This document shows positions 1 to 17,415 of a DNA stretch of 64,000 nt, in pieces. The translations under genes and the position numbers were made by a program. The DNA comes from a virus, in the IMG/VR virus record IMGVR_UViG_2643221642_000002, positions 1 through 64,000 of that record; one strand, given 5' to 3'. The first letter of the stretch is position 1; the number at the start of each line of letters is the position of its first letter. The notes under the pieces are model-generated. The model worked only from the letters and a program-made list of their open reading frames with translations. It made no database searches and was not told the origin of the DNA.

Positions 1-1164
1 TCAATCATTCACCGCTTTTTGGGGACAATTCGGGGACTTTTCGGGCTGATGTAGAGCCGCCATTTTGGCGGCCTCGCGACCGCCGTCGGCCGAGTCGATC
101 CACTTCGAATAGACGTTGAAAAGCATCGCCGTCGTCGCGTGGCCCATCTGCCGAGCGATGTAGGCAGGGTTGACCCCGCCCATCAGCGCGGTCGTCGCAT
201 AGGTATGGCGAGTTTGCACCGCGCCCCGGTGGCGGATGCCCAGGCGCTTCAAGGTCGGCGTGAAATAGGTGGTCCGCTGGTACTCGTCCGTGGCCCAGGG
301 CTGGCCGGTGGCCGGATTGCGGAAGATCGGCCCGTCGACACCCTTCATGAAGCTGATCGGCTTCATGGCGACCAGCGCGGCGACCGCCCGCGGGGTCAGG
401 TCGACGTCCCGGATCGTGCTGGTCTTGGTGCCCTTCTCGCGGCTGTAGGTTCTGGCGGCGTCGATCCTGATCTGAGACCGGCCCCAGTCCACCTTGCCCC
501 ACTTCACCACGATGAGTTCGCTCGGGCGCAGGCCGGTGCAGAAGGCGAATTCGAAATAGGCCCAGACCTCGACGGGCTCTCGTTCCTTCAGCGCCGCCAG
601 GATCGCTTCCATCTCCTCGACCGTGAAGGGATCGGGCACAGGCTTCTGATGCTTCTGGTTCTTGATCCGGACGGCCGGGCTGGCGGGGATCAGGCCATCG
701 TCGACGGCTGAATCCAGGACCCCTCGGAGCGGGATCAGGTCGTTGTTGACGGTCTTGCCCGAGACTTCCTGGACGCGGGCGGCCACGACCTTCTTGATGT
801 CCGACGGCAGCAGCCGCGTGAGCACCTTGGCGCCGAGCGCGGGCGTCCAGACGTTGTTGATGGCGCCTTTGTAGTGCTTGAACGTGCCGAAATCGACGGT
901 CAGGGTTTCCAGCCACTGCTCGGCATAGACACCGAAGGTCAGCTCGGCCGCCGGCGCGCCGGGCGTTTCGAAGAAGTCTTCTCGGCGGTATACACCGGCG
1001 GTGATCGCCGCCTGGATTCGGGCTAGGAGCGTCCCGGCCGCCTTGATGTTGGCGGGCGTGGGCTTCAGGTCCAGCGTCTCGACCAGGCGCTCCCCGTGGT
1101 GCGTGAACTTCAGGCGGATGCAGTTCTGGCGCGGCTCGACGGTCCCCGTTGCCCTTCGACCCAT
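1..1164 (-). CDS. int: Phage tyrosine integrase (site-specific recombinase)
   Basis: 387-aa ORF; C-terminal catalytic domain with conserved R...HxxR...Y arrangement (…RHTYATTALMGGVNPAYIARQMGH…VYSKW); sits at the prophage edge downstream of an excisionase-like gene. Confidence 0.9.
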   Translation of the reverse strand: MGRRATGTVEPRQNCIRLKFTHHGERLVETLDLKPTPANIKAAGTLLARIQAAITAGVYRREDFFETPGAPAAELTFGVYAEQWLETLTVDFGTFKHYKGAINNVWTPALGAKVLTRLLPSDIKKVVAARVQEVSGKTVNNDLIPLRGVLDSAVDDGLIPASPAVRIKNQKHQKPVPDPFTVEEMEAILAALKEREPVEVWAYFEFAFCTGLRPSELIVVKWGKVDWGRSQIRIDAARTYSREKGTKTSTIRDVDLTPRAVAALVAMKPISFMKGVDGPIFRNPATGQPWATDEYQRTTYFTPTLKRLGIRHRGAVQTRHTYATTALMGGVNPAYIARQMGHATTAMLFNVYSKWIDSADGGREAAKMAALHQPEKSPNCPQKAVND

Positions 1165-3910: not shown

Positions 3911-4599
3911 GGCTGCACCCGCTTGAACTCGACCACCCAGACCCACGGATTGGCGTCCCAGGACTCGTCGCCGTTGATCGACCGCCAGAGGAATTCCCAC
4001 AGCACCAGGGCCGGGGCAGTGACGCGGGGCAGGGGGCCGACATAGTCCGGGCTGATGACGTGGGGATCGCCCAGGCTGGCCTCACGGACGCCTTCGGCCT
4101 CGGCGTCGGCCTCGGTGATCGCGCGCAGGCGCTCGACCCGCAGGCCGGTGATCTCCAGCGTCAGGCGGCTGGCCCAGTGCGGCATGTGCATGGGCGGGCA
4201 GCGGTTGCCCTCCTTGTGATGCGCCCAGGCGACCATTTCCTTCGCGCGCGGGTCGGTGTGGCGCATTGAGATCGCCTGCTCGTCGGCGCCGTAGACCCAG
4301 TGGCCGATGGTGCTGCGCCGCAGCTCCTCGCGCACCCAGAGACGGTCGCCGACGTTGCCGTACGGGCACTTGACCCAGGTCAGCGGCCCGCCCTTCGGGT
4401 GCTCGAGCTGCGCGCCGACCCGGCTGTCGGCCGGGTTGACGGCCATGGTCGCCGTAGGCGCCCTCTGCAGCTTCTCCGGGGTCAGCCAAGCGGACTGCTT
4501 GCCGGGAGCCGGCTTCATGACCCGGCGGGTCTGGCCCTTGATGTCGGACTGGATGGCGCGGACCATCGGGCCCGAGAACAGGATCGGGCGGTCAACCAT
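3907..4599 (-). CDS. Conserved phage protein (ASCH-like N-terminus)
   Basis: N-terminus ILFSGPMVRAIQSDIKGQTRRV is a widely conserved phage motif; 230 aa. Confidence 0.55.
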   Translation of the reverse strand: MVDRPILFSGPMVRAIQSDIKGQTRRVMKPAPGKQSAWLTPEKLQRAPTATMAVNPADSRVGAQLEHPKGGPLTWVKCPYGNVGDRLWVREELRRSTIGHWVYGADEQAISMRHTDPRAKEMVAWAHHKEGNRCPPMHMPHWASRLTLEITGLRVERLRAITEADAEAEGVREASLGDPHVISPDYVGPLPRVTAPALVLWEFLWRSINGDESWDANPWVWVVEFKRVQP

Positions 4600-5719
4600 G
4601 GGCCATCTCCGGCATATCGTTGTGCTCGCGGCCGTCCAGGAGACGCCCGTTGCCGCCCTTCGACGCCTTGACCATCAGGCGCCAGGCGACGCCCTCCGGC
4701 AGGTTCAGGTGGTGCCCTCGAAAGGTGCGCCCGTCGGCGCTGACGAAGGCGGTCTCCCGACCGGCGAAGAGCGACATGATGCTGTCGGCTGCGTCGTCGT
4801 CAGCGTCGACGATGTCGACCTTGGGGCCGTCCTCGTCGTGGAAGGCTTCCTTGAAGGAGCCCCACTGTTTGAAGAAAAAGGCGACGCTGGCTCGCTCGCA
4901 GTCGGAGCGGATCTTGCGCGGCCAGTCGGGGTGCATCGGTCGGGAGTCAGCACCGCTTTCGCCGCCGACGATCACCTGGTCGAGCGGCGGCAGCCGTGTG
5001 GGACAGTAGTCGCCAAACATACCGCTCAGCTCGCCGGTCAGCGCGTTCAAAACCTCCGCGCCTCGGAAGCGCAGCGTCGAGATCCTGGTGAAATCCAGCC
5101 CCTCCAGCAGGGGTTCAGCCGACACGATACGCTTGGCTGCCGGCGTTTGGAGAAGGTCGACGACGCGGACGATCCGAGCCTGGTCTTCGACGGAGACTCC
5201 CAGCCAGACGTTCGGGAGCGGGCTGGCCAGCAGCCCGGCGTCGACCAGGTCGATCAGCTGGCGACGGCCGGTGGGATGATCGACCCAGGTAAAAAGCAAG
5301 CGGTCCAGGCCGACGGGCGTGAACAGGCCGGCGACGTACTCGCGCATGGCGTCCGCGCGCTTAGTCAGGATCTGATAGGTATGGTGCGGCGTCGCGGCCA
5401 TGACCGCCCAGACCTTGTCGATCAGCGCGATCGGCACGCCTTCGGCGAACAGGTCGCTCATGCTGTTGACGAAGATCCTGCGCGGCCGGCGCCAGCGAAG
5501 CGGCTTGAAGACGACCTCGTCGGGCGCGGCGGCCATCTTGCCGGTCCAGACGAACCCGGCCTTGGTCTTCATGGTCGTGCCCGCGTAGTGCGGGACGCCG
5601 ATCGCCTCGAGGCGGCCGGCCATCTTCATAGCGTAGCAGTGCTTGCAGCCCGGGCTGACGACCTGGCAGCCCACGACGGGGTTCCAGGTCTCGTCCGTCC
5701 ATTCGATCTTGCTGGCCAT
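4592..5719 (-). CDS. Phage Gp37/Gp68 family protein (DUF5131)
   Basis: From the internal ATG at 5717-5719 (GGAG SD 7 nt upstream): MASKIEWTDETWNPVVGCQVVSPGCKHCYAM…, the hallmark N-terminus of the Gp37/Gp68 family. Confidence 0.75.
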   Translation of the reverse strand: MASKIEWTDETWNPVVGCQVVSPGCKHCYAMKMAGRLEAIGVPHYAGTTMKTKAGFVWTGKMAAAPDEVVFKPLRWRRPRRIFVNSMSDLFAEGVPIALIDKVWAVMAATPHHTYQILTKRADAMREYVAGLFTPVGLDRLLFTWVDHPTGRRQLIDLVDAGLLASPLPNVWLGVSVEDQARIVRVVDLLQTPAAKRIVSAEPLLEGLDFTRISTLRFRGAEVLNALTGELSGMFGDYCPTRLPPLDQVIVGGESGADSRPMHPDWPRKIRSDCERASVAFFFKQWGSFKEAFHDEDGPKVDIVDADDDAADSIMSLFAGRETAFVSADGRTFRGHHLNLPEGVAWRLMVKASKGGNGRLLDGREHNDMPEMAHG

Positions 5720-5774
5720 CGGCGCAGGACTCCGGGGCGGCCGGCGTCTAGCGCCGGCCGCGGGGAAGGGGAGA

Positions 5775-6623
5775 TCAGTCGATCTTGATGAAGGGCACGG
5801 CGCCCGAGGTGACGCGCGGCAACACACCGTCCCACTTGGCGATGGCCTGCTGCTGCATGATCTGCGGATTGGCGCGCAGGGCCTGGCCGCGGATGGTCAG
5901 CGCCTGGGCGTCACCCTCGGCCTCGGCGACCTTGCGGCGCTTCTCCGCCTCGGCCACAGCGGCCTCGGCGTTGGCCTTCTGAACGTCCTGGTCCGCCCGG
6001 GCCCGCGCCAGGATCGACGTCGTCACGACCTCGGGGAAACGCGGCGCGCCCGACCATTCCAGCCGGGTGATCTCGATGCCGTCGCCGCGCCAGCGGTTCG
6101 AGACCTCGCTGAAGGCGTCGCGGGCGATCTTCTGGTAGCCGCCGCCCAGCATCGACTCGACGGGCATGGTGGCCGCCGACCGCGCCACGGCCGTGCGGAC
6201 CGCGTTGCGGATCTGGTTCTCCAGCAGGTAGTCCAGGTTGGCCCGGTACTTGGTGTAGACGCTGGGCGCGGCCGTCGGCAGGACGCGGACGCCGATATTG
6301 ATGTCGCCCTTGATCTCCAGGCCGTTCTTGTCGACGAAGACCAGCTCCTCGTTTTCGCCGCCATCACCGTTGGTCTCGCGGGTGTAGCTGTATTGGCGTT
6401 CGATCACCGGATACTGGAAGATGCGCTCACCGGGCATGCGCAGGTGCCAGCCGGTGGCAAGGGCGTCGGCGGCCACGCCGGGCGCGCCGCCGGTCGGGAA
6501 GGCGCGGAACTTCACGCCGACACTGCCCGGCTCGACGGTCGTCGAGTGACATCCGACGAAGCCCAGCAGGGCCACGGCGCTGACGCCGATCAAGATGAAG
6601 CGCACCGCGCTGTTCGTGCTCAT
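5775..6623 (-). CDS. SPFH/band-7 (prohibitin/HflC-like) domain lipoprotein
   Basis: 282 aa from the ATG at 6621-6623 (GGAGAG SD). Signal peptide with lipobox LLGFVGC, then an SPFH-domain body and a coiled-coil C-terminus (…AEAAVAEAEKRRKVAEAEGDAQA…). Confidence 0.7.
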   Translation of the reverse strand: MSTNSAVRFILIGVSAVALLGFVGCHSTTVEPGSVGVKFRAFPTGGAPGVAADALATGWHLRMPGERIFQYPVIERQYSYTRETNGDGGENEELVFVDKNGLEIKGDINIGVRVLPTAAPSVYTKYRANLDYLLENQIRNAVRTAVARSAATMPVESMLGGGYQKIARDAFSEVSNRWRGDGIEITRLEWSGAPRFPEVVTTSILARARADQDVQKANAEAAVAEAEKRRKVAEAEGDAQALTIRGQALRANPQIMQQQAIAKWDGVLPRVTSGAVPFIKID

Positions 6624-6673
6624 AGTGGTCTCTCCTGCGCCCGCCATCCCCCGGGCGCGTGGGGATGGGTGGG

Positions 6674-6940: not shown

Positions 6941-7209
6941 GACTTCATGTCTCCCCAGATGGCGTCGCTGGCCTGCTCGGCCGTGGCGTCGTCGTGCATT
7001 TCGATGATCAGGGCGGCGGACTGGTCGCCGTCGCGCAGGCGGACGGTCCAGGAGCCGGCGAGACCCAGGGCGCGGAGATCCTTCACCGCCCAGGCGAAGC
7101 GGTTGATGGCCGGCGTGGCGTTGGCCTCGCGGCGCTCGTCCGAGCCGGCGCCGATGCGGTCGCCGGCCTGGACGTCGGCCAGGGTGGTGTAGGCGGGCGC
7201 GGGTTTCAT
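6937..7209 (-). CDS. Hypothetical protein
   Basis: 90 aa from the internal ATG 7207-7209 (MKPAPAYTTLADVQ…); ATGA overlaps on both sides. Confidence 0.5.
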   Translation of the reverse strand: MKPAPAYTTLADVQAGDRIGAGSDERREANATPAINRFAWAVKDLRALGLAGSWTVRLRDGDQSAALIIEMHDDATAEQASDAIWGDMKS

Positions 7210-7439
7210 GCGCGGAACGCCTGCAGGGCGGTGACCTTCAGGCCCTTGCGGCCGTAGCGATCGGCGTGGGCGCGCCAGCTCTCCCACTCCTCGGGCGAGA
7301 TCTTGTGCGCCCTGGTGATCTGGTCGGCCGACAGCTCGCCCCGGCGCTCGGCCAGCAGCAGCTCGTCCTTGCGCGCCGGCGTCCAGCGCGCGACCGGCAG
7401 CAGGCGCGGGTCAGGGTAGACGAGGCGGCGCTTGGCCAT
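7206..7439 (-). CDS. DUF1153 domain protein (small HTH-like)
   Basis: …ARWTPARKDELLLAERRGELSADQITRAHKISPEEWESWRAHADRYGRKGLKVTALQAFRA matches the DUF1153 pattern (RWT..RK…LS.EE…W….G..GL..T..Q). Confidence 0.65.
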   Translation of the reverse strand: MAKRRLVYPDPRLLPVARWTPARKDELLLAERRGELSADQITRAHKISPEEWESWRAHADRYGRKGLKVTALQAFRA

Positions 7440-7714
7440 CACAGGTCCCCCAACAGCTCGGTGTTGGCGTTGCGGCAGCCGTACTCGACGCCGACCTCGA
7501 CCAGCGGACCGTAGCCCTCGACGAAGGGGTTCGGCCCCATATCGATCAGCCCGCGCGCCGCCAGCTGAGCGATATGCTCCGCGTGCTGCTCGACGGTATC
7601 GAACTGGTAGTGGCTGGCCCTGAACTCGGCCATGAAGGCTTCGTCCAGCTTGCTGTCGTCGATCGTCACCTCGACGACCTGCGACACCAGCACCGAGAAC
7701 TTGCGGACGGCCAT
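7439..7714 (-). CDS. Hypothetical protein
   Basis: 91-aa ORF with normal composition; TGATG coupling downstream. Confidence 0.5.
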   Translation of the reverse strand: MAVRKFSVLVSQVVEVTIDDSKLDEAFMAEFRASHYQFDTVEQHAEHIAQLAARGLIDMGPNPFVEGYGPLVEVGVEYGCRNANTELLGDL

Positions 7715-7716
7715 GG

Positions 7717-8151
7717 TCAGGCCGCCTGCAGGGCGCTGCCCGAGGCGTCGCCCGAGAGGGCGCGGGCCAGGCCGATCAGGTGCTGGCGCGCGTGGCTGGG
7801 CGCGGCGACGAAGGCCTTGGCCATCTCGACTCCGCCGGCGACCGAGACCAGCTGCTGGGCGGGGTTGTCGATCGTCGCCGATTGCGCCGTCGACGCAGCG
7901 TCGTCCAGGCCTTCGAAGAAGTAGGAGATCGGGACCTGCAGGGTGCGGGCGATGTCCCAGAGCTTGGAGGCGCTGACGCGGTTGGCGCCGTTCTCGTACT
8001 TCTGGACCTGCTGGAAGGTCAGGCCGAGCGGCGCGGCTAGCGCGTCCTGGCCGAGACCCAGCAGGCGGCGCTGCATGCGGATGCGACCCCCGACGTGGAT
8101 GTCGACCGGGTTTGGCTTGCGGGTTTCGTTGTTGGCGGTGTCGGTGGCCAT
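7717..8151 (-). CDS. XRE-family HTH transcriptional regulator
   Basis: 144 aa from the ATG 8149-8151. Cro/CI-type HTH: RMQRRLLGLGQDALAAPLGLTFQQVQKYENGANRVSASKLWDIARTLQVPISYFF. Confidence 0.75.
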   Translation of the reverse strand: MATDTANNETRKPNPVDIHVGGRIRMQRRLLGLGQDALAAPLGLTFQQVQKYENGANRVSASKLWDIARTLQVPISYFFEGLDDAASTAQSATIDNPAQQLVSVAGGVEMAKAFVAAPSHARQHLIGLARALSGDASGSALQAA

Positions 8152-8261
8152 AGGGGGCGTCCTTGTGGCGGTTGCGGAAAGAAAGGGCCCAGGCCGACAG
8201 GGTGCCGCCGTATCGGCCTGGGCAGGTGCGGCGCCGGCGGTGGGAGCCGGGCCGGGTGGGG

Positions 8262-8534
8262 CTAGCGCGCCGGCGGGTCGGCCTGGCGGCGAGGCGTTGC
8301 GCCGAAGCCAGCGGCGCTGTTGTCCAGGACGACCTTGTCCTTGTCCGCGATCACATCGAGGCGCTGTTCGTCGAACCAAGCGTCTTCGCGGGTCTTGCCA
8401 TCGGCATCGACGGTCGGCGTCACGCCGACGCGGTTACAGCCGGTCAGGTAGGTGGTGTAGCTGGTGGCTACGCCCGAGAAGCCGGTGATCCGGTCCTTCA
8501 CGGTGCTGCCAAGGATAGATTCAGCACGTTGCAT
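8262..8534 (-). CDS. Hypothetical protein
   Basis: 90-aa ORF preceded by a strong AAGGAG SD at 8-nt spacing. Confidence 0.55.
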   Translation of the reverse strand: MQRAESILGSTVKDRITGFSGVATSYTTYLTGCNRVGVTPTVDADGKTREDAWFDEQRLDVIADKDKVVLDNSAAGFGATPRRQADPPAR

Positions 8535-8588: not shown

Positions 8589-9194
8589 CTAGGCCGTCGG
8601 CTGAAGGCCCTGCAGGTGGCAGACGTCGGCCGGACGGAACACGCCGACCCTGTTCAGGCGGCGATAGCCCTCCTGGATCAGCAGAGCCTGCTCGCGGGCG
8701 TCGTCGAGCGCGTGGTGGAACACGCCTTCGCTGTGTTCGAGCTTCAGGCCGAAGAGGTCGTAGATCGTCCGGCAGTCGCGGCCGGCGTTGTAGCGCCAGG
8801 GCGGCTTGATGCCGGCGGCGCGGTAGGCCGCGCCCAGAAGGGTCTCGTCGTAGCTGGGCCCGTTGGACCAGAGGCGATCCGTCTCGTCAGCGACCGGCGC
8901 GTTGACGATGTAGAAGGCGCTGAACTCGGCCAGCACCTCCATGATGGGCCTGGTATCGACGTCGAGGGCCGCCCGGGCGACGGCGCGCTTGGGCGCATCC
9001 CACCACTCGACCGTGCCGGGATCTTCGATCAGGCCGATGGCCTTGGCGGATTCGCGGTCGATGGTCCGGTAGAACGTCCTGTCGGTCAGACCCGCGCCGG
9101 CGGGATCGAAGGCGACCGCGCCGATGGAGGCGATCGACGCCCCAGGGAAGTTCCCCCAGGTCTCCAGGTCGTGGCAGATGTGCAGCTTGATCAC
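8589..9194 (-). CDS. DEDD-type 3'-5' exonuclease (DnaQ/Rv2179c-like)
   Basis: GTG start at 9192-9194 with AAGGAG SD and a GTGA overlap with the upstream stop. Motifs: IKLHICHDLETWG (Exo I) and GVFHHALDDAREQ (H-x4-D, Exo III). Confidence 0.7.
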   Translation of the reverse strand: MIKLHICHDLETWGNFPGASIASIGAVAFDPAGAGLTDRTFYRTIDRESAKAIGLIEDPGTVEWWDAPKRAVARAALDVDTRPIMEVLAEFSAFYIVNAPVADETDRLWSNGPSYDETLLGAAYRAAGIKPPWRYNAGRDCRTIYDLFGLKLEHSEGVFHHALDDAREQALLIQEGYRRLNRVGVFRPADVCHLQGLQPTA

Positions 9195-9880
9195 GCGGCG
9201 CTCCTTTGGGCGTGGATGTGGGCCAGCAGCTGGTGGCCCAGGTGTTCGGTGAAGGCGGGCGGGATCGCCTCGGACAGCTCGTCGAGCGTCATCCAGTCGA
9301 TGCCCATGGCCTCGCTGGCGGCGGCGTTGTGGCCGCCCTCCCAGACGTCGCGCGTGCCCCGGCCGCCGCGCTTGGCGGCGCGGTTGCGGGCATGGCCGCC
9401 ATAGACGCCGATGACCGGCTTGCGGTGGACGCACGGGCCTGGCGCGCTGATCGCGATGTTGCTCTCGAACAGGCGGTGACGCTCGAGGTGGTGGCCCTGG
9501 GCCCCGAGGCCGAACATCGAGCCGCACAGCTTGATCGGTTCGATCATGTCGAACGCGGCCATCTCGACGTTCTCGATGACGTAGGGCAGGCCCAGGCCCT
9601 GCAGGATCTTGCGGATGCGGCCGATTTCCTGGGGCCGACCCTTCGCGCCCTTGGCGTGGCGCAGGGAGCTGTACCCCTGGCACTCAGGGCTGGCGTGCAC
9701 GGCGTCGGCCGCGGCGTAGAAGCCGGGCGCCAGGCCCCAGACGTCGGCCTGCATGAACTGGAACGGGTAGTTGGGCTGCGGGTCCCAATCGACGCCGATG
9801 ACGTCGAACCCGGCCTGGTGGTAGCCCATGGCCACCCCGCCGGCTTTGCAGAAGAGGTCGATCAAGACGGGCCGGGTCAT
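9191..9880 (-). CDS. Short DNA cytosine-5 methyltransferase-like protein
   Basis: 229 aa with C5-MTase motifs: I (LFCKAGGVAMG), IV (HASPECQGYS, the catalytic PC motif), VI (YVIENVE). Unusually short, with no obvious target-recognition domain. Confidence 0.7.
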   Translation of the reverse strand: MTRPVLIDLFCKAGGVAMGYHQAGFDVIGVDWDPQPNYPFQFMQADVWGLAPGFYAAADAVHASPECQGYSSLRHAKGAKGRPQEIGRIRKILQGLGLPYVIENVEMAAFDMIEPIKLCGSMFGLGAQGHHLERHRLFESNIAISAPGPCVHRKPVIGVYGGHARNRAAKRGGRGTRDVWEGGHNAAASEAMGIDWMTLDELSEAIPPAFTEHLGHQLLAHIHAQRSAA

Positions 9881-12249
9881 TGCACCAGCTCGAAATCAGG
9901 GGCCTCGAGGTAGGGCTGGTCCTCGGTGCGGACGGCCAGGGCCAGGGCCAGCGGCTGAACCCATATCGGCTCGTTCGACAGGATGAAGCTCGTCCCCGTC
10001 ATCGCCATCAGCAGGGTCTTGCCCATGACGGAAGCGATCGCCGTCGCCGAGTCCGAGGGCACGGCGTTGCCGATGCGCTCGCGCTTGTCGGCGTCGCTCT
10101 TGCCCTCCAGCTGGAAGAACCAGGCGTCCTCGAGGTTGAAGAGAGACTGGAGCGCGGCCAGCTCGAGGGTGGTGAACGGGCGGTGCCAAGTGCCATCCAG
10201 CGCGCGGATCACCGCGACCAGGCGGTCCTTGGCGTCCGGCAGCGCCAGGGCGCGCATCACCTGGGCGTCGGGCAGCACGACCCTGGGGTCGCCGACGGAC
10301 CAGAAGCCGTTGTTGTTCTTGGCGTAGGCCGGAACCGCGTTCGAGGCGTTGCGCCACGGCACGACCCCATAGTGGCCCTGGTTGGCGTAGGTATCGCGGT
10401 CCTTGTGCGCTAGGCCGATCGGCCGCGGGTCCGCGACTGACCAGCGGCCGTTGTCCCACGGGTGGGCGTTGGCCAGGACCGCGCCGGTGGTGTCGGTGTA
10501 CTTGACCACGCCGTAGTGGTCGCAGCGCACGGTCTTGTAGGCGGTCAGCCCGATCGGGCGGGGATCGGCGACGCTCAACGCGCCCGAGCCGACTCGGTCG
10601 GAGCCCGTCACCGTCCCGGCCGATCCACGGTAGCCCACGACCCGCAGCTTGTTGCGGTGGCTGTTCTCGCCGAAGCCCGTGCGCGGGTCGGCGACCGAGA
10701 ACATGCCCTGCAGTGGCGAACGGGCGGTCGTCAGGACGCCGGCGGTGTCGCGCCAGCGCATGACACCGGCCTGGCCGGTGGCCCACAGCTCAACGCGAGG
10801 GTCAGCGACCGCATAGGCGCCGTCGCCCGTGGTGCTGGCGCCGATCACCGTCCTGGACGCGCCCCTGTAGGGCGTGACGAGGTACTTGGTGTGGACGTAG
10901 TCGCTGCCGGGGTGTCGCGGGTCGGCGACGGCGGCGAGAGCCCCGCGCGCAGAGGTCACGACCGGGCCGGTGTTCTCCCAGGGCACGATCCGATAGACGT
11001 TGCTGAAGCGCGGTCCCGTGTCCTTGAAGCGAGGATCACTGATCGCGTAGGGACCCGTCCCGACCGAGACGTCGCCCTTGATGCAGGGCGCTGAACAGCT
11101 CCAGCGGCGCACGCCCAATTGAACGGACTTGTGGTGGCCGTCGACGCGGGGATCCGCGACCGAAAACACGCCCTGGCCTGGCCGCCCCTCGCGCACGACA
11201 CCGGCCGTCGCGTTGAAGGCCTGAACGCCGTAGGCGCCGGGATGCCACTGGGCCGTCTCGCGCGGGTCCGCCACCGAATAGCGGCCGGTGGTCGCCTCGG
11301 CGTTGGCAGAGATCACGCCGGCGCTGGCGCCGTAGTGCAGGACGCCGAGCGTGCCGTCGCGCCAGGGGCGTTCGGGCATGATGCCGTAGTCGCGCAGGAC
11401 GCCGTCCTCGACCACGAGATCCTTCAGTGACCGCCAGTCCTTGCCGGCCTCGACGAAAGCCAGGCGCACCCAGGTCTGCCATTGCAGCTTGGGCATGCGG
11501 TGCATGTCCGGGGCCCGGGGATCATCGGGCAGCGGCAGCTTGTCCAGGACTTCGCCGACGCCACGCAGGCGCTGCTTCGGCGGCTCGTACAGGAAGGGTT
11601 GCACCTTCGCGGCGTGGCGGGCCACCAGCAGGAACCGCTTGCGGCTCTGGGCCAGGCCGCCCAGCTCGCCGCAGTCATGGGTCGTCTCGGCCACGGCGTA
11701 GCCGTAGTAGCGAAGCATCGAGATGATCTGGTCGAGCAGGTGGCGGCCGCGCGTCGCGATCCGGGGCACGTTCTCGAAAATGATCAGTTCGATCGGGTCG
11801 TCCTGATAGGCCTCCAGGGCGAGCCATAGGCAGCGCAGCGTCAGCTCGTTCAGCGCCTGGTACTTGACCGTCTTACTGACTTCCTCGGCCAGCAGGCCCG
11901 AGAAGCCCTTGCACGGCGCCGAGATGAACAGGATGTGCGGGTGCTTGTGCTGGAAGGCGGCGTGCAGATCCTGGGGCGTCGCCTCGACGAAGTCGGCTGG
12001 CGGGGCCTTGTCGTGGAAGCGGCGATACTGGTCGACCGTGAACAGGTCGCGGACCGTACCGGGTGTCCCGGTCATGCGTCCGAAGTCACGGATCGCTGCC
12101 GGATCGACGTCGATCCCACCGATGCAGTTGAAGCGCGCGCGCAGGTTGCCGACGCGGGCTTGGCCGTTGTTGAAGCCCCGGGCCCCCGCGCCCAGGCCGC
12201 AGGCCAGGTGGGCGTGGTTGATGTCGACGTCGACGACGAGGGAGCTCAA
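9877..12249 (-). CDS. DNA cytosine-5 methyltransferase with nine tandem ~40-aa SVADPR repeats in the target-recognition domain region
   Basis: Motifs I (LACGLGAGARGF), IV (FISAPCKGFSG), VI (IIFENVPRI) and X (RERIGNAVP) are present. Between motifs VIII and IX sit nine repeats (…SVADPRE…, …SVADPRV…, …ISDPRF…, …AVADPRH…, …AVADPRV…, …SVADPRT…, …SVADPRP… ×2, …SVGDPRV…). Start uncertain: TTG 12247-12249 (GGAGGG SD, TTGA overlap) or GTG 12304-12306. Confidence 0.75.
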   Translation of the reverse strand: MSSLVVDVDINHAHLACGLGAGARGFNNGQARVGNLRARFNCIGGIDVDPAAIRDFGRMTGTPGTVRDLFTVDQYRRFHDKAPPADFVEATPQDLHAAFQHKHPHILFISAPCKGFSGLLAEEVSKTVKYQALNELTLRCLWLALEAYQDDPIELIIFENVPRIATRGRHLLDQIISMLRYYGYAVAETTHDCGELGGLAQSRKRFLLVARHAAKVQPFLYEPPKQRLRGVGEVLDKLPLPDDPRAPDMHRMPKLQWQTWVRLAFVEAGKDWRSLKDLVVEDGVLRDYGIMPERPWRDGTLGVLHYGASAGVISANAEATTGRYSVADPRETAQWHPGAYGVQAFNATAGVVREGRPGQGVFSVADPRVDGHHKSVQLGVRRWSCSAPCIKGDVSVGTGPYAISDPRFKDTGPRFSNVYRIVPWENTGPVVTSARGALAAVADPRHPGSDYVHTKYLVTPYRGASRTVIGASTTGDGAYAVADPRVELWATGQAGVMRWRDTAGVLTTARSPLQGMFSVADPRTGFGENSHRNKLRVVGYRGSAGTVTGSDRVGSGALSVADPRPIGLTAYKTVRCDHYGVVKYTDTTGAVLANAHPWDNGRWSVADPRPIGLAHKDRDTYANQGHYGVVPWRNASNAVPAYAKNNNGFWSVGDPRVVLPDAQVMRALALPDAKDRLVAVIRALDGTWHRPFTTLELAALQSLFNLEDAWFFQLEGKSDADKRERIGNAVPSDSATAIASVMGKTLLMAMTGTSFILSNEPIWVQPLALALAVRTEDQPYLEAPDFELVQ

Positions 12250-12566
12250 TGTGCGCCCTCCGACAGGGCGACGACGCCAGCGACCCTCACGCGCAGTTCC
12301 CTGCACATGGCAGGTCCAGTGTCGGGCTTGCCGGAGGCGTGGCCCAACGAAAAGGCGTCGGCGTCGAAGTGGCCGATCACCGCCTGCTGGCAGGCCAACG
12401 AGATCAGGTAGTCGGCGTGGACAACACCTGCTTCCGGGATCGTGAGCAGGTCGACGACCGGCGGCGCGTCGCCTTCGTCAGCGCGGATCCGCCGTTCGGC
12501 TTCCGCAAAGAGGTCCGCCAGCTGCGCGCGGGTGATCGTGAGCGTGGTGATGCTAAGGAGGGCCAC
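12246..12566 (-). CDS. Hypothetical protein
   Basis: 106-aa ORF with a GTG start; coupled to flanking genes. Confidence 0.45.
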   Translation of the reverse strand: MALLSITTLTITRAQLADLFAEAERRIRADEGDAPPVVDLLTIPEAGVVHADYLISLACQQAVIGHFDADAFSLGHASGKPDTGPAMCRELRVRVAGVVALSEGAH

Positions 12567-13796: not shown

Positions 13797-14108
13797 CTAG
13801 TTGAGGGTTGCTGACCGCACGGTGTAGGACCCGTTGGAGGAGGTGCACGACGCTTCGCCAGAAAAGCGGCTCCGGATCGGTACGCCGTAAGAGTTTTGAG
13901 CATCGACCTGGCCGATGATCAGGTACTCGTGCACGCCGGTTGTGATCGTTGTGACTTCGATAAATTTAGCTGTGCTCGGCGCTTTCAGTTGGCCGCGGAT
14001 CGCGTCCTTGACCGCCTTTTCAGCGCCGATCGGCATGCATGCCAGGTCCGAGCAACCCGTCAGCATTGTCGCTCCCGCCAGTGCTGCGGCTAGAAAAACG
14101 GCGCGCAT
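13797..14108 (-). CDS. Small lipoprotein co-transcribed with the CI repressor
   Basis: 103 aa from the ATG 14106-14108 (TGATG coupling with cI); signal peptide MRAVFLAAALAGATMLTGC with lipobox LTGC. Confidence 0.6.
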   Translation of the reverse strand: MRAVFLAAALAGATMLTGCSDLACMPIGAEKAVKDAIRGQLKAPSTAKFIEVTTITTGVHEYLIIGQVDAQNSYGVPIRSRFSGEASCTSSNGSYTVRSATLN

Positions 14109-14770
14109 CAGGCGGCCGTATGGTCGAGGCGAATGATCTTCTCCGCCTGGTGTGGGGGCGCGATCCAAGCGATGTGTGCAACCCAGACTAGGCGCTGATC
14201 TTCGAGCGTCGGCGCCTGCAGCGATTGCAGGTCGTAGACGTCCTTGTTGCTGCCCTTCATCAGTCGCTTGAACACGATCTCGCCGCTCTCAAGCTGGCAG
14301 AATACCAGGCGATGAAGCATGTCCTTCGTCGGCTCAGGCAGGCGCTCGTCGTAGTAGATCAGCGATCCGTCATCGACGACGCTTCTATAGGCGTGGCCTT
14401 CGACCTTCAAGATCACGACGTCCTCGCTGGCCCCCGGCGGGATAGGGGCATACTCCCTGGCCTGGCCGGAGGTGAAAGCGACCGAGTCGTCCGGCATGGC
14501 GCCCAGCTTGCCGACGATGCGGCCCATGCGCTCGCTCGGCCCGAACATCAAAAACTCAGGCGTCGTGCGGAACTTCTTTGCGAAGACCTCGGCCTTCTTT
14601 CTAGAGAACGGACTCGTGCCGTTCTCATGCTGGATATAGGTGTTGCGGCTTAGCCCTAGGGCCTCGGCGGCGTCGGTCGCCGTCTCGTAACCGGCGCCCT
14701 CGCGGGAGGCCTTGAGCCTCGCTCCGGCCTCTCGGTTCTTCTGACGGGTTTTGGCGTCGGTCGTGGACAT
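14108..14770 (-). CDS. cI: CI-like repressor (XRE HTH + LexA-like S24 peptidase domain)
   Basis: N-terminal HTH (…ATDAAEALGLSRNTYIQHENGTS…) and C-terminal S24 autopeptidase region (…VVILKVEGHAYRSVVDDGSLIYYD…KRLMKG…). Divergent from cro with three operators in between. Confidence 0.85.
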   Translation of the reverse strand: MSTTDAKTRQKNREAGARLKASREGAGYETATDAAEALGLSRNTYIQHENGTSPFSRKKAEVFAKKFRTTPEFLMFGPSERMGRIVGKLGAMPDDSVAFTSGQAREYAPIPPGASEDVVILKVEGHAYRSVVDDGSLIYYDERLPEPTKDMLHRLVFCQLESGEIVFKRLMKGSNKDVYDLQSLQAPTLEDQRLVWVAHIAWIAPPHQAEKIIRLDHTAA

Positions 14771-16773: not shown

Positions 16774-17415
16774 ATGGCCAACCGGAATCCGTTGCAGGTG
16801 TTCTACGACAAGGTCGTCGAACTCTTCGCTGAACGCGACGAGATCAATCAGCGGATCGCTGAGACGAAAGCCGCCGCTGCCAAGCGCGGGTTCTCGAAGA
16901 AGGTGCTCAACAACGTGCTGCGACGCGCGAAGTTGACGCCCGAACAGCGCGAGGAAGAAGACGCGCTGACCCAGATCTACGAAGGCGCCCTGGGAATGTT
17001 GGGCGGAACGCCTCTCGGCGAGGCCGCTCTGCGCCGACTTTCCGAGGAGCGCAAGCGCCGGCCGGAAGGCGGTGACGATGAAGACTCCGAGCTGCCGTTC
17101 AGCGACGACGACGAACAGGAGCCGCCCGGCGGCGCCAGCGGTGACGTCGTTGCGGACGATCCCGTCGTCGAGGACAGCCAGGATGAGGCCCGAGCGAAGG
17201 GCGCGGCCGCCGCTCAGTCCGGTCAGCCGGTCCTGGCCAACCCCTACAAGCCGCGCACCAAGCAGCGCGGGTGGTGGGACGAGGCGTGGTGCCAGGCCAG
17301 CGGCTCGGACGGCATGGACATCCCCGAGGCCTGGCGTCCGACGCCGAAGCCGAAGAAGGGCGGGCCGAAGCCCGAGGGCGAAGGTGGCGAGGGCTCGGAA
17401 GGCGGTGACGCGTGA
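16774..17415 (+). CDS. GapR-like (DUF2312) DNA-binding protein fused to an acidic linker and a C-terminal RMF-like motif
   Basis: N-terminus: LQVFYDKVVELFAERDEINQRIAETKAAAAKRGFSKKVLNNVLRRAKLTPEQREEEDALTQIYEGALGM aligns to the GapR/DUF2312 core (…IKEVYAEAKGNGFDVKAMRTIIKLRK…EEEAVLETYMAALGM). C-terminus: NPYKPRTKQRGWWDEAWCQA resembles the ribosome modulation factor signature (CPYQTLNQRSQWLGGWREA). Confidence 0.7.
   Translation: MANRNPLQVFYDKVVELFAERDEINQRIAETKAAAAKRGFSKKVLNNVLRRAKLTPEQREEEDALTQIYEGALGMLGGTPLGEAALRRLSEERKRRPEGGDDEDSELPFSDDDEQEPPGGASGDVVADDPVVEDSQDEARAKGAAAAQSGQPVLANPYKPRTKQRGWWDEAWCQASGSDGMDIPEAWRPTPKPKKGGPKPEGEGGEGSEGGDA

Follow-up and report, generated by a model that had tools for sequence, protein, structure and literature searches.

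Three overlapping genes in a Caulobacter prophage

The stretch of DNA analysed here (the window) spans positions 1 to 64,000 of the IMG/VR virus record IMGVR_UViG_2643221642_000002. Three consecutive genes on its minus strand encode a large C5 DNA cytosine methyltransferase (C5-MTase, hereafter MTase), a small C5-MTase-like protein of 229 amino acids (aa) and an exonuclease (Table 1). Over its full length of 790 aa the large protein shows 100% identity to an NCBI entry from Caulobacter sp. Root343, and the window holds a prophage of this strain with a size of ~55 kb. A sequence-only reading of the locus had centred on the short methylase gene. This focus proved misplaced: the unusual protein is the large MTase, in which nine different cassettes of about 40 aa interrupt the catalytic core, and we slightly favour the view that these cassettes form an array of target-recognition domains.

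Reading of the minus strand confirmed that the genes are joined by overlapping stop and start codons. A TTGA junction (gcgcacaTTGAgctcc) combines the stop codon of a 106-aa open reading frame (ORF) with the TTG start of the large MTase at 12249, an ATGA junction (gtgcaATGAcccgg) combines the stop of the large MTase with the ATG start of the small one at 9880, and a GTGA junction (aaaggagcgccgcGTGAtcaag) combines the stop of the small MTase with the GTG start of the exonuclease at 9194, where the ribosome-binding site aaaggag precedes the GTG. Start/stop overlaps of four bases are common in phage operons and are weak evidence taken alone.

Table 1. Features of the locus, with positions in the window
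Feature	Position	Strand	Basis or remarks
CI-like repressor	14108-14770	-	phrog_4 transcriptional repressor match, aa 5-204; head of leftward early region
ORF, 106 aa, function not assigned	12246-12566	-	TGA stop overlaps TTG start of large MTase; common only to related prophage L025
Large orphan C5 DNA cytosine methyltransferase, 790 aa, TTG start	9877-12249	-	Motifs, Pfam, model, Foldseek
First, conserved part of variable region, aa 215-290, including GKDWRSL	11380-11607	-	Invariant columns; ahead of cassette array
Nine-cassette array, aa 291-656	10282-11379	-	Repeat unit analysis, cassette hidden Markov model
Cassette c1	11260-11379	-	
Cassette c2	11146-11259	-	
Cassette c3	11029-11145	-	
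Cassette c4	10915-11028	-	
Cassette c5	10795-10914	-	
Cassette c6	10681-10794	-	
Cassette c7	10558-10680	-	
Cassette c8	10423-10557	-	
Cassette c9	10282-10422	-	
Conserved post-array segment LP..DRLVAVIRALDGTWHRP, then motifs IX, X, C-terminal tail, stop	9877-10281	-	Homolog alignment, model
Small C5-MTase-like protein, complete, 229 aa	9191-9880	-	Motifs, family alignment, AlphaFold2 model, Foldseek
Rv2179c-like DEDDh 3'-5' exonuclease, 201 aa, GTG start	8589-9194	-	PF16473; HDLET, SYDET, HHALDDA
Tyrosine integrase with arm-binding domain	1-1164	-	PF00589, PF12167; far end of leftward operon

The large methyltransferase carries nine tandem cassettes in its catalytic core

The large MTase contains motifs I (ACGLGAGARGF, aa 16-26), IV (SAPCKGFS, with Cys113), VI (ENV, aa 159-161), VIII (QSRKRF, aa 201-206), IX (HRPFTTLELAALQ, aa 689-701) and X (GNAVP, aa 727-731) in canonical order, and all six are invariant in 99 homologs. 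The Pfam profile PF00145 scored 48.2 bits (cut-off 22) and aligned with the N-terminal half only (aa 34-214 against profile positions 21-164); TIGR00675 gave 32 bits, under its cut-off of 100.65, and a phmmer search of the PDB with the full protein matched no methyltransferase. In an AlphaFold2 model (790 aa, 99 homologs) the catalytic core reached a predicted local distance difference test (pLDDT) score >90, and Foldseek matched this core to MET1, DNMT1, HhaI and HaeIII at E values of 5e-11 to 1e-8. Judged by motifs, Pfam score and predicted fold, the large protein is a bona fide C5-MTase and presumably catalytically active. The region between motif VIII and the array is a conserved 75-aa stretch that ends ...GKDWRSLKDLVVEDGVLRDYGI; it aligns to the G-ADW-HDLP segment of MET1 and to positions up to 234/344 of the PADLOC profile MTase_II. 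Directly after the array comes the segment LP...DRLVAVIRALDGTWHRPFT, followed by motifs IX and X. In the homologs P0039, P0243, P0314 and P0374 an intein (Hint + LAGLIDADG) lies exactly at the catalytic Cys of motif IV, with the junction SAPC/LPADG...THN/CKGFS in P0039, and this intein explains the family members of 900-1200 aa.

A 'giant repeat' had been noted in the large MTase, and its existence was confirmed. Between motifs VIII and IX the protein repeats a unit of 38-47 aa nine times in tandem, and every unit ends in (S/A)(V/I)(A/S/G)DPR. This array is Gly/Pro-rich and basic (pI 9.7), its cassettes are of the types G-A-F-C-E-I-B-G-D, and pairwise identity among the nine is 13-46%. Tandem Repeats Finder found nothing in the DNA of the array, which indicates that the cassette repeats are old and not recent duplications. 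The sole repeat at the DNA level is a word of ~14 nucleotides, CGCGGGTCGGCGAC (plus strand), which encodes VADPR and is found at cassette ends (10424-10437, 10682-10695, 10916-10929); such a shared boundary word may aid the gain and loss of cassettes as microhomology.

Relatives of the large MTase fall into >6600 clusters, with at least 582 matches in IMG/VR and 41 phage records, and they include phiCTX orf41, PBC5 gp34, LKA5 gp10 and proteins of rhizobial prophages. A profile made of the cassettes, searched against 1.84 billion representative proteins, matched 558 clusters with E values down to 1e-131, which places the array far beyond chance. Cassettes were found in C5-MTases only, and in 37 of the 39 representatives that passed a full-length test the array was located between motif VI/VIII and motif X. 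A Pfam search matched the array to no known repeat family.

The array varies by whole units. The best 120 homologs contain 6-11 cassettes as counted with a cassette hidden Markov model (HMM), the top 150 of the cassette-profile clusters contain 4-12, and the lengths of the variable region (~355, 396, 437, 477, 517 and 558 aa) rise in steps of one unit (~40 aa). Clustering of 996 cassettes yielded ~13 types, arranged in 97 architectures among 120 proteins; the order is partly kept (…F-C-E/H…B…D), and cassettes have been gained, lost, duplicated and occasionally swapped. Identity across proteins is 57% for cassettes of one type, against 29% for different types within one protein, so that selection evidently keeps each type distinct. 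All types have a scaffold in common (V13, W16, V23, G32 and V36-A-D-P-R40), conservation of two segments (columns 5-12 and 24-31) holds inside each type but not from type to type, and the remaining positions are free to vary. A closed beta-propeller was ruled out, as the repeat number varies among close relatives, and so was a DNA-mimic decoy, given the basic character of the array.

The cassettes as candidate target-recognition domains

We slightly favour the reading in which the cassettes are target-recognition domains arrayed on one catalytic core, which would make the large MTase a hyper-multispecific orphan enzyme, because the position of the array, the size of its units, the combination of a common scaffold with segments particular to each type and the turnover of whole modules all match recognition-domain arrays. 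The basic pI of the array, the confinement of cassettes to C5-MTases and the place of these orphan genes in an early phage operon also speak for it. The recognition domains of Bacillus enzymes described by Trautner and colleagues in 1996 are reportedly similar in size to the cassettes. The cassette pattern ..YGVv.W...aGtVT........G..SVADPR matches what we take to be the hairpin between the two base-reading loops of M.HhaI (…GQGERIYSTRGIAITLSAYGGG…) and DNMT1. The type-specific columns would then flank the 'RvY..G.a.TvT' hairpin and presumably fall on loops I/II of HhaI and loop II of DNMT1, and the conserved hairpin after the array (…LVAVIRALDGTWHRP…) presumably corresponds to the two paired strands that run up to motif IX.

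Profile comparisons gave weak but consistent support for this mapping. A profile composed of the N-terminus, the last cassette and the C-terminus found a weak match in the PDB, Arabidopsis MET1 (E value 0.009), in three colinear pieces; one of these pairs GsDWrsL…GhYGvvaW with GADWHDLP…GLYGRLDW, so that both the G-DW-L element of MET1 and the 'YG..W' start of its recognition hairpin align with the large MTase. Among PADLOC profiles, the 368-position DruM2 C5-MTase profile was aligned end to end by one-cassette constructs of types F or I, and a type C construct extended the 344-position MTase_II alignment by ~5 bits; for most other one-cassette constructs the alignment to PADLOC profiles was broken.

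Several observations weigh against recognition domains, and a number of them would suit an enzyme of single or very relaxed specificity. In that case the array would be one repeat domain or mostly pseudo-domains, used for non-specific DNA binding, processivity/sliding or protein contacts, and at most one cassette (type D, for example) would read a target. A construct with no cassette spans the canonical 344-position MTase profile end to end, so that the array could have been inserted into an enzyme that was complete without it. The Gly/Pro-rich, basic array was modelled without a fixed fold, with pLDDT <50 and no secondary structure over aa 294-667; the repeats may have been mis-registered in the alignment, or the region may be genuinely disordered. 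Similarity to known recognition domains was not detected in the PDB or in SPbeta MtbP: a cassette-only profile returned only chance matches from the PDB (NF-kB, E value ~0.7), the cassette HMM found nothing in MtbP, and hhalign aligned motifs VI-VIII only. Type D is near-universal and stands last in most proteins, which, together with the partly kept order, suggests positional constraints. Some cassettes could be inactive pseudo-domains, such as have been described in the Bacillus phage enzymes, and we know of no structural precedent for nine to twelve domains on one active site. Early expression of the three genes is read from gene order alone. We nevertheless regard a single-specificity enzyme as unlikely, as a closed or cooperative fold would poorly tolerate a cassette number that is so free among close relatives; moreover, the types keep their own residues in two segments and do not converge on one repeat consensus, and the array resembles no known repeat family.

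As an array of recognition domains, the cassettes would most closely resemble those of the multispecific C5-MTases of Bacillus phages (M.SPRI, M.Phi3TI, M.Rho11sI, M.SPBetaI/MtbP, M.H2I) and of M.BssHII / M.phiBssHII, in which one core also carries tandem short modules between motifs VIII and IX. The Bacillus phage enzymes are likewise orphans borne by phages or prophages, and their module content differs between relatives. They have 2-5 modules, compared with 4-12 in the large-MTase family. Between the two groups no sequence similarity was detectable in the recognition region, and thus the large MTase may work like the Bacillus enzymes without being a member by descent; its cassettes, unlike the Bacillus modules, have an invariant VADPR end and a V/W/V/G scaffold. 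The hosts of the large-MTase family are Alpha-, Beta- and Gammaproteobacteria. Activity and specificity are proven only for the Bacillus enzymes, where several recognition modules on one core have been demonstrated and are presumed to serve as a shield from several restriction systems (PMC12707154, PMC8936443). With M.HhaI, M.HaeIII and DNMT1/MET1 the large MTase shares motifs I, IV, VI, VIII, IX and X and the core fold; in these enzymes the recognition hairpin and its loops are present once, whereas the large MTase would contain this element nine times, in nine versions.

Literature searches, which did not extend to REBASE, found no published description of the cassette array or its family. 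Reviews of 2022 and 2025 cite recognition-domain arrays from Bacillus phages only (PMC12707154, PMC8936443), phage genome papers label the large-MTase genes as plain C5 methylases, and phiCTX orf41 is still a 'hypothetical protein'. The large MTase is apparently a widespread variant of the multispecific-methylase idea that has not yet been described.

The small methyltransferase belongs to a common phage family

The 229-aa protein had been described as lacking the later motifs (IX/X) and a target-recognition region; the later motifs are in fact present, and so is a candidate recognition region. It contains motifs I (DLFCKAGG), IV (HASPECQGY, with Cys67), VI (ENV) and VIII (RHRLFE, aa 134-139), followed by a mini recognition segment of ~40 aa (aa 141-182) that includes the basic loop HARNRAAKRGGRGTRDVW, and by an IX/X-like part, EAMGIDWMT...EAIPPAFTEHLG (aa 190-215). 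In an alignment of 60 family members, AGG of motif I, HASP-CQ of motif IV, ENV of motif VI and R134/R136 of motif VIII are invariant or nearly so, and the stretch PVIGVYGGHAR.R.AK.GGRGTRDVW and the IX/X equivalent EAMGIDWMT..E.SEAIPPA.TE.LG are conserved as well. General C5-MTase profiles score the protein low (PF00145, 17.6 bits against a Pfam gathering score of 22; the NCBIfam profile TIGR00675, 16 against a cut-off of 100.65), and many of its homologs carry a precomputed PF00145 match. The short ORF turned out to represent a very large family of complete small MTases of ~220-235 aa: a homology search returned 7896 clusters among 8000 scored, and the best 120 homologs have a median length of 229 aa, with all except one within 218-261 aa.

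AlphaFold2 modelled the small MTase with a pLDDT of 91.5 and a predicted template-modelling score (pTM) of 0.90. The candidate recognition segment is predicted to form two strands plus a basic loop that hardly varies in the family, and the model is flexible only in that loop (aa 167-180). The best Foldseek matches of the model were M.HaeIII, DNMT3A/B and M.HhaI (probability 1.0, template-modelling (TM) score up to 0.71). Like the catalytic domain of DNMT3A/B, the small MTase combines the C5-MTase fold with a very short (here predicted) recognition region (TM score 0.60-0.67, normalised to the query); it differs in being ~50 residues shorter, in having no partner domains, in a motif X with IPP in place of GNAVP and, in this copy, in PECQ for PPCQ in motif IV, and the identity is 12-15%.

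The family occurs in 311 phage records, most of them from actinophages, led by 187 mycobacteriophages and followed by phages of Streptomyces, Paenibacillus, Arthrobacter, Gordonia and Vibrio, mostly annotated as 'DNA methyltransferase', and none of these six host genera was found among the phages with a large MTase. In the prophage L003 neither of the other two genes accompanies the small MTase, which is flanked by recombination genes (ERF, YqaJ) on one side and an integrase gene on the other. A truncated or partner-dependent enzyme is not supported by the full motif set, the confident fold and this distribution, mostly without a large MTase. We consider the small MTase to be probably a self-sufficient mini C5-MTase whose predicted recognition segment is similar in size to one cassette. 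The M.AquI / M.EcoHK31I type of split MTase was ruled out on two of these grounds, the whole motif set and the occurrence without a large MTase. The actinophage methylase of PMC9957025 is another protein and far larger.

Motif IV of this copy (9680-9694, minus strand) has Glu-Cys instead of Pro-Cys. Across 120 homologs, the position ahead of the Cys is occupied by P in 101 proteins, by E in 7, by D in 5, by H in 2 and by K and M in 1 each, with no pattern match in the remaining 3. The family also keeps C119, C150, H152 and H163 with few or no exceptions, and these residues may bind a metal. The homolog P0226 (396 aa) has a permuted/duplicated layout, in which the C-terminal half (motif IV onward) lies ahead of a full copy.

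The exonuclease and the distribution of the three genes

The exonuclease matched PF16473 (Rv2179c-like) with 125.4 bits (cut-off 27; E value 2.7e-36; aa 5-175) and also phrog_255 'exonuclease'. Its full-length Pfam match and DEDDh residues are held in common with Rv2179c of M. tuberculosis and the other PF16473 exonucleases, of which it is a phage copy. Relatives are present in 568 phage records from many hosts, under labels that vary between exonuclease and exoribonuclease. It is a common, generic phage DEDDh nuclease without a demonstrated tie to DNA modification.

The sequence-only reading had presented the three genes as a dedicated anti-restriction module, in which a truncated short MTase would need the large MTase or the exonuclease. 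The start/stop overlaps tie the three genes together, and a large MTase followed by a small MTase and a DEDD exonuclease was seen again in two related prophages only: the close relative L002 has the trio with the same overlaps (identities 73% and 82%), and L025 keeps the order (identities 53% and 67%). However, the L025 exonuclease (5148-5891, plus strand) belongs to another Pfam family, PF00929 RNase_T, and has no detectable similarity to the Rv2179c-like enzyme of the window; the swap could be a non-orthologous replacement or a case of extreme divergence. L002 and L025 also have the flanking ORFs of the trio in common with the window, which identifies the trio as inherited operon synteny. 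Among 80 IMG/VR loci with a large MTase, each examined with 5 kb of flanking sequence, the small MTase was found in 1/80 and an Rv2179c-like exonuclease in 0/80, and a PF00929-type exonuclease lies upstream in two further loci. Neither a small MTase nor an annotated exonuclease directly adjoins PBC5 gp34, LKA5 gp10 or phiCTX orf41; in LKA5 an annotated 'DNA polymerase associated exonuclease', whose family was not assigned, is located ~4 kb upstream. Considering also that the small MTase has all its motifs, a confident complete predicted fold and many occurrences by itself, a co-dependent module is very improbable. The trio appears to be three independently distributed early genes, joined by shared operon ancestry.

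Pfam and PADLOC profile scans found no nuclease partner near either MTase, and a restriction-modification system was therefore ruled out. Both MTases are thus orphans, and a role in restriction evasion on induction would fit the known orphan MTases of temperate phages (PMC12707154). Of the earlier reading, the place of the genes in a leftward prophage operon stands; its short MTase without a recognition domain, set in an anti-restriction module of three genes, has for the most part found another explanation.

Prophage setting

The gene map of the window was built with a codon-position G+C filter (window G+C 66-71%). Minus-strand genes run from the CI-like repressor down to the tyrosine integrase, with the trio inside this leftward run, so that the location first given, the early-left region of a prophage, is borne out. 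The integrase ORF starts at base 1 of the window, and its 3' end is possibly cut by the window edge. Plus-strand genes extend from ~14.8 kb to ~57 kb and include ORFs of 1506 and 1409 aa, lengths expected of tail genes when judged by size alone. The element is a lambda-like prophage with the trio in its leftward early operon. No terminator-like sites were found on the minus strand between 7000 and 15300, and a promoter scan gave no sites with an E. coli-type consensus, which is uninformative for Caulobacter.

The leftward early operon also encodes a DUF5131 protein of 411 aa (4592-5827, minus strand) that matches the PADLOC candidate-defence models PDC-M41B (E value 8e-74) and PDC-M30B (E value 4e-70), an SPFH/Band-7 protein (5775-6647), a DUF1643 protein (1322-1849) and a DUF1153 protein (7206-7442), the last three likewise on the minus strand. 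L002 has counterparts of the DUF1643 and DUF1153 genes and none of the Band-7 gene. For an HTH_3 protein (7717-8379, minus strand) the longest ORF of 220 aa overlaps a 90-aa gene (8262-8534), and its first ~75 residues are of low complexity; the true start is probably an internal Met near 8151, giving ~144 aa, comparable to the 139-aa homolog in L002. In the rightward early region, a gene at 16774-17415 (plus strand) specifies a protein with a GapR-like DNA-binding domain, and L002 encodes one too.

Discussion

We propose that induction would switch on a leftward early transcript from which the trio, by way of its overlapping stop and start codons, could be translated in series. In the large MTase, the DNA-reading element of an ordinary C5-MTase, a hairpin with its loops, would be replaced by the nine different cassettes. 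All or most of these would each recognise a target autonomously and take turns in docking to the shared core. One enzyme could in this way place 5-methylcytosine (m5C) in several different short sequences of the replicating phage DNA, with the small MTase adding one further specificity. The methylated progeny DNA would resist many restriction systems of the next host; it would also become a target of methylation-dependent nucleases.

The MTases might instead act mainly as regulators of the phage cycle or the host (replication, packaging, expression) or in self-marking against a phage-borne nuclease, which we hold to be quite unlikely. Orphan phage MTases with regulatory or packaging roles do exist, P1 Dmt being an example (PMC12707154), and the predicted recognition segment of the small MTase, near-invariant across very different hosts, fits a fixed target better than an arms race. 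In the large MTase, on the other hand, the rapid turnover of cassettes is a sign of diversifying pressure and not of a fixed regulatory site, and neither MTase has an adjoining nuclease partner.

It is tempting to extend the recognition-domain reading to the family as a whole. Tentatively, and with rather less than an even chance in our estimate, the cassettes may constitute a natural combinatorial library of ~13 or more autonomous mini recognition domains, each with its own target, carried in sets of 4-12 per core and exchanged among the temperate phages of Proteobacteria. If so, the enzyme of the window would methylate some eight or nine sequences and be the most multispecific DNA methyltransferase known, and the cassette string of such an enzyme would allow its target set to be read and also to be re-programmed.

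For the locus itself, the analysis disposes of a false lead: the 229-aa methylase is an ordinary representative of a phage family that is very common, and the trio is a case of inherited synteny. If the cassettes are recognition domains, the multispecific strategy would be widespread in the temperate phages of Proteobacteria, including the classic phiCTX, with up to 12 modules on one core. The ~13 compact (~40 aa) cassette types would then be naturally portable DNA-reading modules, of use in studies of C5-MTase recognition and in the engineering of methylation specificity. In that case, too, the m5C methylomes of lysogens may hold many motifs that stem from one gene, and the array would explain how such phages cross restriction barriers.

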